DNA of 64,000 nt from Escherichia coli (GTDB lineage Bacteria; Pseudomonadota; Gammaproteobacteria; Enterobacterales; Enterobacteriaceae): the NCBI RefSeq assembly GCF_001677475.2, contig NZ_CP015229.1. One strand, given 5' to 3'. Made by a program: the position numbers and the translations under genes. Of the stretch, positions 1,454 through 8,662 are shown piece after piece (the first letter of the stretch is position 1; the number at the start of each line of letters is the position of its first letter). The notes beneath the pieces were generated by a model. It did no database searches. It was not told the origin of the DNA and was given only the letters and a program-made list of their open reading frames with translations.

Positions 1454-1528
1454 GTCCTCTTAGTTAAATGGATATAACGAGCCCCTCCTAAGGGCTAATT
1501 GCAGGTTCGATTCCTGCAGGGGACACCA
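1454..1528 (+). tRNA. argW: tRNA-Arg (anticodon CCU)
   Basis: 75-nt sequence GTCCTCTTAGTTAAATGGATATAACGAGCCCCTCCTAAGGGCTAATTGCAGGTTCGATTCCTGCAGGGGACACCA with cloverleaf potential, CCT in anticodon loop and encoded CCA end. Confidence 0.9.
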
Positions 1529-1653
1529 GATACCCTTCTAACGATATCTACCTTCACCCCGTAAAAGATGGGTTTGGCAGCACACTTACCCTATATCTAC
1601 TCATTTTTACTGCAACAGGTTGAAATCTTAGCACTGTCAGAAAGCGCTGATGA

Positions 1654-1890
1654 CTAAACAACCCTGGGCCGGGCGATGTAACCATCACACAGAATCCTGA
1701 TAGCGAAATATGGCGTGACTCGATACTTCACTCCGCAATGTATTCCTTGATGAATTCGCAGGCCCGTGATACACGGGACAGGTCGCTGAATGACGACAAT
1801 GTCCTGGAAATCAGCGAACCGCGTATCCGAAGTACATTTGAGCGACTGTACCAGAACATGAATGAGGCGTTTGGATTAGGTGATTATTAG
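1654..1890 (+). other. Unassigned open frame (stop-to-stop about 78 codons, internal Met at 1738) in the segment between argW and cscB; possible gene remnant
   Basis: Frame open from TGA at 1651-1653 to TAG at 1888-1890; translation ...MYSLMNSQARDTRDRSLNDDNVLEISEPRIRSTFERLYQNMNEAFGLGDY; no family recognised. Confidence 0.2.
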
Positions 1891-1969
1891 CAGGGCTAAG
1901 CATTTTAGTATTATTATTTTCCGGTTGAGGGATATGGAGATATCGACAACAACCGGAAAAAGTTTACGT

Positions 1970-3217
1970 CTATATTGCTGAAGGAACAGGCGTTTCCATA
2001 ACTATTTGCTCGCGTTTTTTACTCAGGAAGAAAATGCCAAATAGCAACATCAGGCAGACAATACCCGAAATTGCGAAGAAAACTGTCTGGTAGCCTGCGT
2101 GGTCAAAGAGTATCCCAGTCGGCGTTGAAAGCAGCACAATCCCAAGCGAACTGGCAATTTGAAAACCAATCAGAAAGATCGTCGACGACAGGCGCCTATC
2201 AAAGTTTGCCACGCTGTATTTGAAGACGGATATGACACAAAGTGGAACCTCAATGGCATGTAACAGCTTCACTAATGAAATAATCCAGGGGTTAACGAAC
2301 AGCGCGCAGGAAAGGATACGCAACGCCATAATCACAACACCGATAAGTAATGCATTTTTTGGCCCTACCCGATTCACAAAGAAAGGAATAATCGCCATGC
2401 ACAGCGCTTCGAGTACCACCTGGAATGAGTTGAGATAACCATACAGGCGCGTTCCTACATCGTGTGATTCGAATAAACCTGCATAAAAGACAGGAAAAAG
2501 TTGTTGATCAAAAATGTTATAGAAAGACCACGTCCCCACAATAAATATGACGAAAACCCAGAAGTTTCGATCCTTGAAAACTGCGATAAAATCCTCTTTT
2601 TTTACCCCTCCCGCATCCGCCGCTACGCACTGGTGATCCTTATCTTTAAAACACATGTTGATCATCATAAATACAGCGCCAAATAGCGAGACCAACCAGA
2701 AGTTGATATGGGGACTGATACTAAAAAATATGCCGGCAAAGAACGCGCCAATAGCATAGCCAAAAGATCCCCAGGCGCGCGCTGTTCCATATTCGAAATG
2801 AAAATTTCGCGCCATTTTTTCGGTGAAGCTGTCAAGCAAACCGCATCCCGCCAGATACCCCAGGCCAAAAAAGAGCGCCCCCAGAATTAGACCTACAGAA
2901 AAATTGCTTTGCAGTAACGGTTCATAAACGTAAATCATAAACGGTCCGGTCAAGACCAGGATGAAACTCATACACCAGATGAGCGGTTTCTTCAGACCGA
3001 GTTTATCCTGAACGATGCCGTAGAACATCATAAATAGAATGCTGGTAAACTGGTTGACCGAATAAAGTGTACCTAATTCCGTCCCTGTCAACCCTAGATG
3101 TCCTTTCAGCCAAATAGCGTATAACGACCACCACAGCGACCAGGAAATAAAAAAGAGAAATGAGTAACTGGATGCAAAACGATAGTACGCATTTCTGAAT
3201 GGAATATTCAGTGCCAT
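1970..3217 (-). CDS. cscB: Sucrose:H+ symporter (MFS, LacY-like oligosaccharide:H+ symporter family)
   Basis: 415-aa 12-TM-type ORF recognised as CscB; adjacent to cscK/cscA/cscR. Confidence 0.9.
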   Translation of the reverse strand: MALNIPFRNAYYRFASSYSFLFFISWSLWWSLYAIWLKGHLGLTGTELGTLYSVNQFTSILFMMFYGIVQDKLGLKKPLIWCMSFILVLTGPFMIYVYEPLLQSNFSVGLILGALFFGLGYLAGCGLLDSFTEKMARNFHFEYGTARAWGSFGYAIGAFFAGIFFSISPHINFWLVSLFGAVFMMINMCFKDKDHQCVAADAGGVKKEDFIAVFKDRNFWVFVIFIVGTWSFYNIFDQQLFPVFYAGLFESHDVGTRLYGYLNSFQVVLEALCMAIIPFFVNRVGPKNALLIGVVIMALRILSCALFVNPWIISLVKLLHAIEVPLCVISVFKYSVANFDRRLSSTIFLIGFQIASSLGIVLLSTPTGILFDHAGYQTVFFAISGIVCLMLLFGIFFLSKKREQIVMETPVPSAI

Positions 3218-3288
3218 AATTACCTGCCTGTCGTTAAAAAATTCACGTCCTATTTAGAGATAAGAGCGACTTCGCTGTTTACTTCTCA

Positions 3289-4203
3289 CTATTCCAGTTC
3301 TTGTCGACATGGCAGCGCTGTCATTGCCCCTTTCGCCGTTACTGCAAGCGCTCCGCAACGTTGAGCGAGATCGATAATTCGTCGCATTTCTCTCTCATCT
3401 GTAGATAATCCCGTAGAGGACAGACCTGTGAGTAACCCGGCAACGAACGCATCTCCCGCCCCCGTGCTATCGACACAATTCACAGACATTCCAGCAAAAT
3501 GGTGAACTTGTCCTCGATAACAGACCACCACCCCTTCTGCACCTTTAGTCACCAACAGCATGGCGATCTCATACTCTTTTGCCAGGGCGCATATATCCCG
3601 ATCGTTCTGTGTTTTTCCACTGATAAGTCGCCATTCTTCTTCCGAGAGCTTGACGACATCCGCCAGTTGCAGCGCCTGCCGCAAACACAAGCGGAGCAAA
3701 TGCTCGTCTTGCCATAGATCTTCACGAATATTGGGATCGAAGCTGACAAAACCTCCGGCATGCCGGATCGCCGTCATCGCTGTAAATGCGCTGGTACGCG
3801 AAGGCTCAGCAGACAACGCAATTGAACAGAGATGTAACCATTCGCCATGTCGCCAGCAGGGCAAGTCTGTCGTCTCTAAAAAAAGATCGGCACTGGGGCG
3901 GACCATAAACGTAAATGAACGTTCCCCTTGATCGTTCAGATCGACAAGCACCGTGGATGTCCGGTGCCATTCATCTTGCTTCAGATACGTGATATCGACT
4001 CCCTCAGTTAGCAGCGTTCTTTGCATTAACGCACCAAAAGGATCATCCCCCACCCGACCTATAAACCCACTTATTCCGCCTAATCTGGCGATTCCCACCG
4101 CAACGTTAGCTGGCGCACCGCCAGGACAAGGCAGTAGCCGCCCGTCTGATTCTGGCAAGAGATCTACGACCGCGTCCCCTAAAACCCACACTTTGGCTGA
4201 CAT
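3289..4203 (-). CDS. cscK: Fructokinase (PfkB/ribokinase family)
   Basis: 304-aa ORF with PfkB-type N-terminal GDAVVD and C-terminal GAGDAF motifs; in csc cluster. Confidence 0.85.
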   Translation of the reverse strand: MSAKVWVLGDAVVDLLPESDGRLLPCPGGAPANVAVGIARLGGISGFIGRVGDDPFGALMQRTLLTEGVDITYLKQDEWHRTSTVLVDLNDQGERSFTFMVRPSADLFLETTDLPCWRHGEWLHLCSIALSAEPSRTSAFTAMTAIRHAGGFVSFDPNIREDLWQDEHLLRLCLRQALQLADVVKLSEEEWRLISGKTQNDRDICALAKEYEIAMLLVTKGAEGVVVCYRGQVHHFAGMSVNCVDSTGAGDAFVAGLLTGLSSTGLSTDEREMRRIIDLAQRCGALAVTAKGAMTALPCRQELE

Positions 4204-4308
4204 TTTTTTCCCTTAGATTCATCTGACTTACGCATAGTGATAAACCTCTTTTTCGCAAAATCGTCATGGATTTACTAAAACATGCATATTCGATCACAAA
4301 ACATCATA

Positions 4309-4320
4309 GTTAACGTTAAC
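4309..4320. promoter_or_regulatory. Perfect 12-bp palindrome GTTAACGTTAAC in cscK-cscA divergent promoter region; candidate CscR operator (copy 1)
   Basis: Read directly in sequence; self-complementary; second identical copy 64 bp downstream. Confidence 0.5.
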
Positions 4321-4372
4321 ATTTGTGATATTCATCGCATTTATGAAAGTAAGGGACTTTATTTTTATAAAA

Positions 4373-4384
4373 GTTAACGTTAAC
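4373..4384. promoter_or_regulatory. Perfect 12-bp palindrome GTTAACGTTAAC; candidate CscR operator (copy 2)
   Basis: Identical to 4309-4320; lies about 25 bp upstream of cscA start codon. Confidence 0.5.
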
Positions 4385-4409
4385 AATTCACCAAATTTGC
4401 TTAACCAGG

Positions 4410-5852
4410 ATGATAAAAATGACGCAATCTCGATTACATGCGGCGCAAAACGCACTAGCAAAACTTCACGAGCGCCGAGGTAACACTTTCTATCCCCATT
4501 TTCACCTCGCGCCTCCTGCCGGGTGGATGAACGATCCAAACGGCCTGATCTGGTTTAACGATCGTTATCACGCGTTTTATCAACATCACCCGATGAGCGA
4601 ACACTGGGGGCCAATGCACTGGGGACATGCCACCAGCGACGATATGATCCACTGGCAGCATGAGCCTATTGCGCTAGCGCCAGGAGACGAGAATGACAAA
4701 GACGGGTGTTTTTCAGGTAGTGCTGTCGATGACAATGGTGTCCTCTCACTTATCTACACCGGACACGTCTGGCTCGATGGTGCAGGTAATGACGATGCAA
4801 TTCGCGAAGTACAATGTCTGGCTACCAGTCGGGATGGTATTCATTTCGAGAAACAGGGTGTGATCCTCACTCCACCAGAAGGAATCATGCACTTCCGCGA
4901 TCCTAAAGTGTGGCGTGAAGCCGACACATGGTGGATGGTAGTCGGGGCGAAAGACCCAGGCAACACGGGGCAGATCCTCCTTTATCGCGGCAGTTCATTA
5001 CGTGAATGGACTTTCGATCGCGTACTGGCCCACGCTGATGCGGGTGAAAGCTATATGTGGGAATGTCCGGACTTTTTCAGCCTTGGCGATCAGCATTATC
5101 TGATGTTTTCCCCGCAGGGAATGAATGCCGAGGGATACAGTTATCGAAATCGCTTTCAAAGTGGCGTAATACCCGGAATCTGGTCGCCAGGACGACTTTT
5201 TGCACAATCCGGGCATTTTACTGAACTTGATAACGGGCATGACTTTTATGCACCACAAAGCTTTTTAGCGAAGGATGGTCGGCGTATTGTTATCGGCTGG
5301 ATGGATATGTGGGAATCGCCAATGCCCTCAAAACGTGAAGGCTGGGCAGGCTGCATGACGCTGGCGCGCGAGCTATCAGAGAGCAATGGCAAACTCCTAC
5401 AACGCCCGGTACACGAAGCTGAGTCGTTACGCCAGCAGCATCAATCTATCTCTCCCCGCACAATCAGCAATAAATATGTTTTGCAGGAAAACGCGCAAGC
5501 AGTTGAGATTCAGTTGCAGTGGGCGCTGAAGAACAGTGATGCCGAACATTACGGCTTACAGCTCGGTACTGGAATGCGGCTGTATATTGATAACCAATCT
5601 GAGCGACTTGTTTTGTGGCGGTATTACCCACACGAGAATTTAGACGGCTACCGTAGTATTCCCCTCCCGCAGCGTGACACACTCGCCCTAAGGATATTTA
5701 TCGATACATCATCCGTGGAAGTATTTATTAACGACGGGGAAGCGGTGATGAGTAGTCGAATCTATCCGCAGCCAGAAGAACGGGAACTGTCGCTTTATGC
5801 CTCCCACGGAGTGGCTGTGGTGCAACATGGAGCACTCTGGCTACTGGGTTAA
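4410..5852 (+). CDS. cscA: Sucrose-6-phosphate hydrolase / invertase (glycoside hydrolase family 32)
   Basis: 480-aa ORF with GH32 N-terminal WMNDPNG catalytic motif and RDP motif (FRDPKV). Confidence 0.9.
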   Translation: MIKMTQSRLHAAQNALAKLHERRGNTFYPHFHLAPPAGWMNDPNGLIWFNDRYHAFYQHHPMSEHWGPMHWGHATSDDMIHWQHEPIALAPGDENDKDGCFSGSAVDDNGVLSLIYTGHVWLDGAGNDDAIREVQCLATSRDGIHFEKQGVILTPPEGIMHFRDPKVWREADTWWMVVGAKDPGNTGQILLYRGSSLREWTFDRVLAHADAGESYMWECPDFFSLGDQHYLMFSPQGMNAEGYSYRNRFQSGVIPGIWSPGRLFAQSGHFTELDNGHDFYAPQSFLAKDGRRIVIGWMDMWESPMPSKREGWAGCMTLARELSESNGKLLQRPVHEAESLRQQHQSISPRTISNKYVLQENAQAVEIQLQWALKNSDAEHYGLQLGTGMRLYIDNQSERLVLWRYYPHENLDGYRSIPLPQRDTLALRIFIDTSSVEVFINDGEAVMSSRIYPQPEERELSLYASHGVAVVQHGALWLLG

Positions 5853-5859
5853 CATAATA

Positions 5860-6861
5860 TCAGGTGGAACAACGGATCAACAGCGGGCAAGGGATCCGCG
5901 TCACTCTTCCCCCTTCACGACCTTCAATAATATGCAATGCAGCTTCCCGCCCGATAATGTCATGTGGAAGCTGAATTGTGGTCAGCGGCGGTAAAAACAG
6001 ATGCCCGACGCCAACCAGATTATCAAAGCCCATTACGGCGACATCCTGCGGGATACGTACCCCCTTCGCCAGGAGAACCTGATAAGCGACAAAGGCTGCG
6101 CGATCGTTACCACATATCAGAACATCAAAATCTGGTTTGCCAGATTGGAAGTGGGCATTGAGTAAACTTGCGAGATCGGTGTAGTGATCATCACCTGTTG
6201 CCATGTGAAATTGTTTCACCTCAGCCAGATCTCGTCCAGCATCACGCCAGGCCTGCTCAAATCCCTGCCGACGATACCCTGTTGCCAACGCACTTTCCGG
6301 TAGCCAGAAGCATAACGGTTGACGATAGCCCGCCGCGAGCAAATGCTGTGTTGATTCATATTGTGCAGTGTAATCATCAGGGATATAACTGGGTAACACT
6401 GGGTCATCCGCCACACAGTTCGCCAATACAATATTTTCACCATACAGAGACTCAGGCAGCGTGATATGTCGCAGCCCCATTGTAGTATAGATAATGCCAT
6501 CCGGACGGTGGGCAAGCAGCTGACGTGCCGCGCGGGCAGCGTCATCTTCAGAAAAAATATTGATTAAAAAACTATTCCAGCCGAACTCGCTGGCGGTTTG
6601 CTCAATGGCAAGCAGAATATCAACAGAGAAAGGAGTGGTAGCAGTGTCCTGCGCCAGCACGGCGAGAGTCGACGGCTTACGTCCTTGAGCGCGCATCTTA
6701 CGGGCGGAAAGATCAGGAACATAATTCAGGGTCTGGATTGCCTGCAATACGCGGTCACGCGTTGCAGGACGCACAGATTCTGCATTATGCATCACCCGGG
6801 AGACTGTCATCATCGACACTCCCGCCAGGCGTGCGACATCCTTTAATGAAGCCATACCCAT
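5860..6861 (-). CDS. cscR: LacI-family transcriptional repressor of csc genes
   Basis: HTH (MASLKDVARLAGVSMMTVSRVMHN) then periplasmic-binding-protein-like sugar domain; 397-aa ORF in track is probably 5'-extended, start placed at internal Met (6861 or 6855). Confidence 0.85.
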   Translation of the reverse strand: MGMASLKDVARLAGVSMMTVSRVMHNAESVRPATRDRVLQAIQTLNYVPDLSARKMRAQGRKPSTLAVLAQDTATTPFSVDILLAIEQTASEFGWNSFLINIFSEDDAARAARQLLAHRPDGIIYTTMGLRHITLPESLYGENIVLANCVADDPVLPSYIPDDYTAQYESTQHLLAAGYRQPLCFWLPESALATGYRRQGFEQAWRDAGRDLAEVKQFHMATGDDHYTDLASLLNAHFQSGKPDFDVLICGNDRAAFVAYQVLLAKGVRIPQDVAVMGFDNLVGVGHLFLPPLTTIQLPHDIIGREAALHIIEGREGGRVTRIPCPLLIRCST

Positions 6862-7097
6862 GCCGTTTGCCGTAAAACGGGCACTGTAGCAGAAACAGAC
6901 GTCACTGGCGAGATCCAACGATATTCTTAACGCCCTATCACCCGACACGGCAATACAATAAAAAATAACAATAATTGCCGGATAATTGTACCCAATTCCG
7001 CCCCTGTTCTCGCCAACGAGTAACCATATAGGCAAGTAAGTAAAACATGCCAACTGACATCGCCAACCTGGATAAGAAAATATAAATATGGATCATT

Positions 7098-7316
7098 GTG
7101 CTGCCGCTGTATCCCGACATCAGCCCGGAAATTATTGCGATTGCTATCGGTTCAGGTGCGATTGGCTGCACGATCGTTACGGACTCGCTTTTCTGGCTGG
7201 TGAAGCAATATTGCGGCGCTACGCTTAATGAAACATTTAAACACTATACGACAGCGACATTTATCGCTTCAGTCGTCGCTCTGGCGGGCACATTCCTGCT
7301 GTCATTTATCATCTAA
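7098..7316 (+). pseudogene. dsdX: 3' remnant of D-serine permease gene dsdX (GntP family); 5' portion and dsdC absent
   Basis: 72-aa ORF ...[42 protein letters not shown] resembles a GntP-family C-terminus; sits directly upstream of dsdA where dsdX is expected. Confidence 0.65.
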
Positions 7317-7333: not shown

Positions 7334-8662
7334 ATGGAAAACGCTAAAATGAACTCGCTCATCGCCCAGTATCCGTTGGTAAAGGATCTGGTTGCTCTTA
7401 AAGAAACCACCTGGTTTAATCCTGGCACGACCTCATTGGCTGAAGGTTTACCTTATGTTGGCCTGACCGAACAGGATGTTCAGGACGCCCATGCGCGCTT
7501 ATCCCGTTTTGCACCCTATCTGGCAAAAGCATTTCCTGAAACTGCTGCTACTGGGGGGATTATTGAATCAGAACTGGTTGCCATTCCGGCTATGCAAAAA
7601 CGGCTGGAAAAGGAATATCAACAACCGATCAGCGGGCAACTGTTACTGAAAAAAGATAGCCATTTGCCCATTTCCGGCTCCATAAAAGCACGCGGCGGGA
7701 TTTATGAAGTCCTGGCACACGCAGAAAAACTGGCTCTGGAAGCGGGGTTGCTGACGCTTGAAGATGACTACAGCAAACTGCTTTCTCCGGAGTTTAAACA
7801 GTTCTTTAGCCAATACAGCATTGCTGTGGGCTCAACCGGAAATCTGGGATTGTCAATCGGCATAATGAGCGCCCGCATTGGCTTTAAGGTGACAGTGCAT
7901 ATGTCTGCTGATGCCCGGGCATGGAAAAAAGCGAAACTGCGCAGCCATGGCGTTATGGTCGTGGAATATGAGCAAGATTATGGTGTTGCCGTCGAGGAAG
8001 GACGTAAAGCAGCGCAGTCTGACCCGAACTGTTTCTTTATTGATGACGAGAATTCCCGCAGGTTGTTCCTTGGGTATTCCGTCGCAGGCCAGCGTCTTAA
8101 AGCGCAATTTGCCGAGCAAGGTCGTATTGTCGATGCTGATAACCCTCTGTTTGTCTATCTGCCGTGTGGTGTAGGCGGTGGTCCTGGTGGTGTCGCATTC
8201 GGGCTTAAACTGGCGTTTGGCGATCATGTTCACTGCTTTTTTGCCGAACCAACGCACTCCCCTTGTATGCTGTTAGGCGTCCATACAGGATTACACGATC
8301 AGATTAATGTTCAGGATATTGGTATCGACAACCTTACCGCAGCGGATGGCCTTGCAGTTGGTCGCGCATCAGGCTTTGTCGGGCGGGCAATGGAGCGTCT
8401 GCTGGATGGCTTCTATACCCTTAGCGATCAAACCATGTATGACATGCTTGGCTGGCTGACGCAGGAAGAAGGTATTCGTCTTGAACCTTCGGCACTGGCG
8501 GGTATGGCCGGGCCTCAGCGCGTGTGCGCATCAGTAAGTTACCAACAGATGCACGGTTTCAGCGCAGAACAACTGCGTAATGCCACTCATCTGGTGTGGG
8601 CGACGGGAGGTGGAATGGTGCCGGAAGAAGAGATGGAGCAATATCTGGCAAAAGGCCGCTAA
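7334..8662 (+). CDS. dsdA: D-serine ammonia-lyase (D-serine dehydratase), PLP-dependent
   Basis: 442-aa ORF; PLP-lysine region SGSIKARGG; recognised as DsdA. Confidence 0.9.

Follow-up and report, generated by a model that had tools for sequence, protein, structure and literature searches.

How did the csc genes come to lie directly behind the tRNA gene argW in this Escherichia coli chromosome, and what is the short stretch of DNA that separates the two? In the 64,000 nt that we analyzed (hereafter, the window), argW is followed by an intergenic segment in which the original prediction had seen an orphan open frame, an inverted repeat and no prophage, and which it left without an account of how the csc block was acquired. 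According to the accessible parts of two published articles (PMC3032704 and PMC11251922, which cite Jahreis 2002 and Moritz & Welch 2006), csc is inserted at a recombination hot spot that has argW on one side and dsdX on the other, the region is variable, and csc is mutually exclusive with D-serine use. The window agrees with the argW-dsdCXA region and csc regulon as described there, with the same order argW, cscB, cscK, cscA, cscR, truncated dsdX, dsdA, and with the D-serine genes lost where csc sits. The layout of the locus is as follows:

446-1378, + strand: yfdC, preceded by a partial mlaA at the left end of the window
1454-1528, + strand: argW, tRNA-Arg(CCU) (ARAGORN; Rfam tRNA, 63 bits)
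1529-1969: argW-cscB intergenic segment, 441 nt
1970-3217, - strand: cscB, 415 aa
3289-4203, - strand: cscK
4410-5852, + strand: cscA
5860-6855, - strand: cscR
from 7099: dsdX remnant, where K-12 homology resumes
7334-8662: dsdA, followed by emrY
1529-7098: replacement block (relic, cscB, cscK, cscA, cscR and 200 nt) in place of the K-12 flank, dsdC and the 5′ part of dsdX

Homology to K-12 is confined to positions 1-1528, i.e., up to the last base of argW, and to the sequence from 7099 onward, inside dsdX. Because it stops at 1528 and resumes at 7099, the intervening 1529-7098 reads as a single replacement block relative to K-12. The K-12 sequence past the attR core differs from the segment from the very first base onward, and a comparison of this post-attR flank with the segment yielded no similarity (1,764 of 2,000 shuffles scored as well). 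At the other end of the block, the csc cassette and the dsdX remnant are separated by ~200 nt (6897-7098) that occur in E. coli only at this csc-positive locus, with identities of 89% to 97.5%, and display no similarity to island ends.

The open frame in the segment proved to be a piece of a gene. As first described, it runs from stop to stop: TGA at 1651-1653 and TAG at 1888-1890 delimit 78 codons (1654-1890, + strand) that end in ...RIRSTFERLYQNMNEAFGLGDY. The frame matched the Pfam domain DUF4942 (PF13708) above the gathering score (37.2 bits, cut-off 25; E = 3.2e-9), over profile positions 5-62 of 190 only, and it was found by tblastn with full-length homologues (E = 1e-20) and by an nhmmer profile (E = 1e-39). 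These full-length relatives (261-283 aa) came from an exhaustive HMMER search, a word-indexed protein search having given the same short fragments only. The frame aligns to residues 76-151 of the homologues at 40-54% identity, and intact proteins of ~281 aa carry the DUF4942 domain at residues 87-275. Since the alignment ends at residue 151 and the domain runs on to 275, ~130 C-terminal codons are missing and the ending ...LGDY (stop) is not native. The earlier view of the frame as the remnant of a truncated gene was thus borne out, but not as a 3′ end: it is a pseudogene fragment, an internal piece of a ~281-codon gene. When we extended the comparison over the whole segment, it resolved into the following parts:

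1529-1566, + strand: probable relic of the left (integrase-proximal) arm of a CP4-like island with a P4-type integrase
1565-1592, + strand: probable DUF957 gene fragment, gene nt ~102-130, a short match
1593-1682, + strand: DUF4942 piece 1, codons ~37-67, in a frame other than that of piece 2 and containing a stop codon
~1683-1883, + strand: DUF4942 piece 2, codons ~85-151 (the nhmmer, tblastn and PF13708 matches given above)
1884-1901: junction of 18 nt from the relic to the csc cassette, with no DUF4942 similarity and outside the Citrobacter homology
1902-1969, - strand: cscB-distal end of the csc cassette, with a stem-loop (Citrobacter amalonaticus homology)

Piece 1 was detected by nhmmer (E = 7e-10), by blastn against the gene in locus L007 (E = 8e-13), and as a secondary tblastn HSP that places 1595-1678 on residues 38-65. 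For piece 2, the nhmmer match placed 1682-1878 on codons ~85-150. Piece 1 is split from piece 2 by a deletion of ~54 nt, and in intact genes an ATGAAA repeat flanks the stretch concerned. DNA similarity to DUF4942 genes was absent past ~1883. Neither a full domain nor an intact reading frame is left: what remains, codons ~37-151, is broken by the 54-nt deletion, by a frameshift and by internal stops. The intact DUF4942 genes nearest to the relic share 72-76% identity with it, and among 5,426 E. coli genomes no full-length parent exceeded ~76% identity.

Could the frame nevertheless do something? RefSeq (PGAP) annotates a CDS at this spot in many genomes and the segment is kept in about half of the E. 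coli genomes, as would be expected if the frame, or the 50-60-aa RefSeq CDS, encoded a functional small protein or the segment a small RNA. We regard this as extremely improbable. Among six alleles, the variable sites of the 1654-1890 frame were spread evenly over codon positions 1:2:3 (8:8:7, versus 7:2:32 in cscB), two of the six carried a premature stop, and the mean pairwise divergence amounted to 4.2% for 1529-1969 versus 1.2% for cscB. In an Escherichia lineage that is ~10% diverged (L010), the frame is largely deleted and further parts are lost. The frame covers 58 of the 190 domain positions, and the RefSeq calls of a "DUF4942 domain-containing protein" vary in length from 44 to 85 aa or are lacking in some genomes. 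In E. coli strain 1190 (L001 8180-8362, equivalent to window 1708-1890), the call is a 60-aa CDS that starts at ATA and bears no pseudogene flag. No ORF between argW and cscB reaches 60 aa, as had been stated before, the longest being 50 aa (1738-1890, + strand), 44 aa and 43 aa. An Rfam scan of 1300-2200 matched argW alone, and a promoter scan of the same interval returned a single promoter-like site (1887-1914), at the level of shuffled sequence. The 1654-1890 frame is accordingly non-functional and evolves neutrally, the short RefSeq CDSs at this spot are pseudogene debris, and the segment has no function of its own.

If the gene fragment is debris, of what element? The position of the segment offered a first lead. 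The last 15 nt of argW (1514-1528), CTGCAGGGGACACCA, are the att core of KplE1/P22-like prophages and of CP4-like islands, and this 15-mer recurs at element/chromosome junctions in other genomes. In every genome that we examined, an att core stands directly before the segment, with different neighbors on the other side of that core. In E. coli strain 1190 the neighbor is a P22/KplE1-like prophage, which ends in torI-attR; in O157:H7 it is the remnant of a prophage, and the core there is one base short through a deletion; in E. coli strain 10153 (L021) it is a CP4-like island of 25 kb; and in the window the core is argW's own 3′ end. The segment is the chromosomal side of attB in csc-positive strains, and in the window attB is empty. 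As the 3′ end of argW is intact, the site would still work as attB, in keeping with the prophage, remnant or newer CP4-like island that sits between core and scar elsewhere. Stx phages have also been reported at argW (PMC10132054). The flank beside the argW site in csc-positive strains is thereby defined, which aids the mapping of prophages and CP4-like islands.

The original prediction had named argW as the attachment site of CPS-53/KplE1 in K-12, and intS to torI do follow argW there; both genes are present in strain 1190 as well, O157:H7 has intS only, and the window has neither intS beside argW nor torI beside an attR. The K-12 prophage uses the same att core, and related prophages stand directly upstream of the segment in other strains, but no part of CPS-53/KplE1 lies in the window and the K-12 post-core flank is unrelated to the window's. 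Positions 1529-1600 likewise show no similarity to the KplE1 attL arm. That no integrase or phage gene follows argW in the window holds true: we found no tyrosine integrase beside the tRNA gene, with no ORF above 50 aa up to cscB. The absence of a direct repeat at the far edge of the csc block was upheld over a larger span, since the suggested search for the argW 3′ end, run over the whole 64 kb with the 15-mer core or a 25-mer and up to three mismatches, retrieved the argW copy alone and hence no attL/attR pair.

The gene content of the segment points instead to CP4-type islands (CP4-6/-44/-57-like), which have a P4-family integrase and a terminal module YeeU/CbeA-CbtA-DUF5983-DUF957-DUF4942. 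In six of six intact contexts inspected, DUF4942 was the last gene of a CP4-like island, and the island boundary lay 100-300 nt past it; upstream we found antirestriction, RadC/JAB, YeeU/CbeA, CbtA, DUF5983, and DUF957 in 5/6 contexts. The window retains fragments of the last two genes in the same order and orientation, at the 3′ end of a tRNA gene that extant islands use, with an arm-like sequence right after the core. It differs from such islands in having no integrase, no attR and no intact gene, i.e., ~355 nt of an element that normally measures tens of kilobases.

An extant island at argW allowed a direct comparison. The island of strain 10153 has the orientation of the relic, pointing away from argW, and a core at either end; the second core abuts the scar. 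The island's integrase has the domains Arm-DNA-bind_3, Phage_int_M and Phage_integrase and is of P4 type. A second strain (L027) carries the same island. This extant island (L021 19218-44611; L027) ends at the YeeU antitoxin gene, without CbtA, DUF5983, DUF957 and DUF4942, and it stands in tandem after a P22-like prophage, with a copy of the core between the two elements. Positions 1532-1566 of the window are ~71% identical to the first 37 nt that follow the core and precede the P4-type integrase in the strain 10153 island. Both alignments begin at an equal offset from the core, 2 of 10,000 random real slices score as well, and within E. coli the 1529-1566 stretch occurs only at the argW locus. 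We consider 1529-1566 a probable relic of the left arm of a CP4-like island, this match of 38 nt being short. The adjacent 28 nt (1565-1592) are likewise short and their match to DUF957 is weak in the window (103 of 10,000 random slices score as well, p ~0.01), but the L010 copy is better preserved (7 of 10,000 slices; nhmmer E = 4e-4) and aligns to the same gene positions. The assignment is collinear with the DUF957-DUF4942 gene order, and these + strand fragments, albeit only as fragments, reproduce the terminal order ...DUF957-DUF4942 reading away from the integrase end. The 28 nt are thus a probable DUF957 fragment.

We therefore asked which history would best unite these remnants, and consider it likely that 1529-1883 is the collapsed scar of an old CP4-like argW island whose right end and attR were lost and in whose place the csc cassette now lies. 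The ancestral island would have been oriented tRNA - integrase ... CbtA - DUF5983 - DUF957 - DUF4942. That it had the full terminal module is something we infer from islands at other sites, given that the extant argW island is without DUF4942. The survivors would be ~38 nt of the integrase-side arm, ~28 nt of DUF957 and DUF4942 codons ~37-151, joined by internal deletions and drifting neutrally. The relic ends at DUF4942 codon 151 and the block reaches into dsdX, so that everything from the 3′ half of DUF4942 to the 5′ part of dsdX would have been removed: the DUF4942 3′ half, attR, the old chromosomal flank, dsdC and the first 1,120 nt of dsdX. This removal may have come with the arrival of csc or through a linked deletion, and the csc cassette (1902-6896) would now fill the place of the island's right end. 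With the attL junction at argW original, the block would have its exact edge at the tRNA gene, and with attR deleted, no direct repeat of the argW 3′ end would be left at the far edge of the csc block. Retention of attL and loss of attR would thus account for two features of the block, an exact left edge at argW and no att repeat on the far side. Decay of the island in place at argW, and the order of the deletions, we infer.

The scar appears to be old, because no full-length gene above ~76% identity exists in E. coli and because the scar is common to L010, where it likewise lies beside csc. The same observations bear on a different course of events, in which csc and the DUF957/DUF4942 fragments came in as a single imported patch (1529-7098); the donor would already have had csc beside a decayed island end, and the patch would have replaced the dsdC flank. 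The block does differ from K-12 as one unit and the unit recurs in the 10%-diverged L010; moreover, an intermediate, i.e., an argW island still ending in DUF957-DUF4942 beside csc or dsdC, was not found in 5,426 genomes. Yet the left edge of the block coincides exactly with the att core, and the initial 38 nt are similar to the arm of an argW-specific island. The csc genes outside Escherichia speak against the import as well. When one genome per species was scanned, we found the cassette in Citrobacter amalonaticus, with a CscB that is 90-91% identical, and more distant relatives in Rosenbergiella. DNA homology to the C. amalonaticus locus extends over window 1902-6896 at 80-83% identity, so that this only non-Escherichia cassette found shares just that interval with the window and has no similarity to the relic. 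Its neighbors there are sugar ABC-transporter genes on one side and, on the other, an MCP gene with fbp and mpl behind it; these flanks held no tRNA gene (8 kb on each side), no integrase (among seven larger ORFs) and nothing relic-like. We judge the import of a ready-made patch to be rather unlikely; it would merge with decay at argW if the donor was another Escherichia with an island at argW.

A further way to join the relic to argW would be an aberrant excision, in which the integrase recombined the att core with a secondary, core-like site within the 5′ end of DUF4942. MAFFT sets the core opposite DUF4942 codons 9-14, with 8-10 of 15 matches, which is chance level, given that 9-10 of 15 matches arise by chance one to four times per gene; we rejected the candidate site. 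In addition, the island arm and the DUF957 fragment account better for the 64 nt that follow the core. An aberrant excision is therefore very unlikely, and a collapsed argW island remains the preferred reading. Whether csc itself reached Escherichia as cargo of this island, or by insertion into it, is a separate matter, to which we assign a low probability. Were csc island-borne, P4-integrase islands would have delivered a catabolic operon, and their later collapse would have fixed the operon in the chromosome, with the loss of D-serine use as the price.

The C. amalonaticus alignment also shows where the csc cassette begins. Because this homology begins at 1902, positions 1902-1969, including the inverted repeat, evidently belong to the csc cassette. 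The repeat noted beside cscB is real and perfect, two arms of 11 nt with 100% complementarity, TTTTCCGGTTG (1917-1927) and CAACCGGAAAA (1950-1960), 22 nt apart, but it is a feature of the cassette and not of the relic. It starts a few bases past the cscB stop codon. On the cscB strand the RNA folds with -20.7 kcal/mol (z = -3.96), and the stem TTTTTCCGGTTG/CAACCGGAAAA does not differ between E. coli, L010 and C. amalonaticus, although its loop and flanks do. As the stem never varies, covariation gives no signal for or against the hairpin. The repeat most likely forms a hairpin at the 3′ end of the cscKB transcript, where it would be terminator-like or stabilizing. We rejected a canonical Rho-independent terminator at 1917-1960: the stem is stable, but neither strand has a U-tract after it, both showing a T-run before the stem and an A-run after it, and a consensus scan made no call.

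Two other observations concern the csc genes. In a contig of Escherichia sp. MOD1-EC7003 (L009 6445-6524), csc homology stops within the hairpin loop (window 1937), the sequence beyond is unrelated, and the contig ends 60 nt later; this lineage would thus have a different left csc junction. The divergent intergenic region between cscK and cscA contains a palindromic motif of 19-22 nt, ATAGTTAACGTTAACATTT, twice (4303-4324 and 4367-4388), 64 nt apart; the two copies look like candidate operators of the LacI-type repressor CscR.

The segment is a common feature of the species. Of 5,426 complete E. coli genomes, 2,644 have it as a single chromosomal copy, and in 2,623 it is of full length. The original prediction had held that its reading would fail if the segment aligned end to end with ordinary intergenic DNA of csc-positive strains and had no truncated-gene homology; the end-to-end alignment was indeed found, in these 2,623 csc-positive genomes, together with truncated-gene homology. 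Plasmid-borne csc was considered and dismissed, for of four near-identical "plasmid" records of 0.37-4.9 Mb, the three above 1.4 Mb look like mislabelled chromosomes, and the remaining "plasmid" matches are distant permease homologues. The best identity of the segment to any genome was 97.7% (a canine strain), compared with 96.1% to O157:H7, while the flanks reached 99.1-99.3% (O157:H7 lineage). None of the 5,426 complete E. coli genomes was identical to the window, which suggests, from these identities, a lineage absent from the collection or a recombinant allele.

The placement of csc, its exclusivity with D-serine use, the variability of the region and the RefSeq DUF4942 label were known before. 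The accessible parts of PMC3032704 and PMC11251922 make no mention of an island relic, and reading the segment as an island scar is a small addition. Beyond the points given above, the locus is a case of ordinary genome decay. IS elements have remodelled it independently in three genomes: ISEc46 replaced the equivalent of window 1529-1890 in one (L002 3957-5990), IS903B inserted at the start of the scar in another (L027 4977-5945), and in the third an IS3-family element stands at the position from which the scar and the entire csc block are absent (L026 7745-8958).
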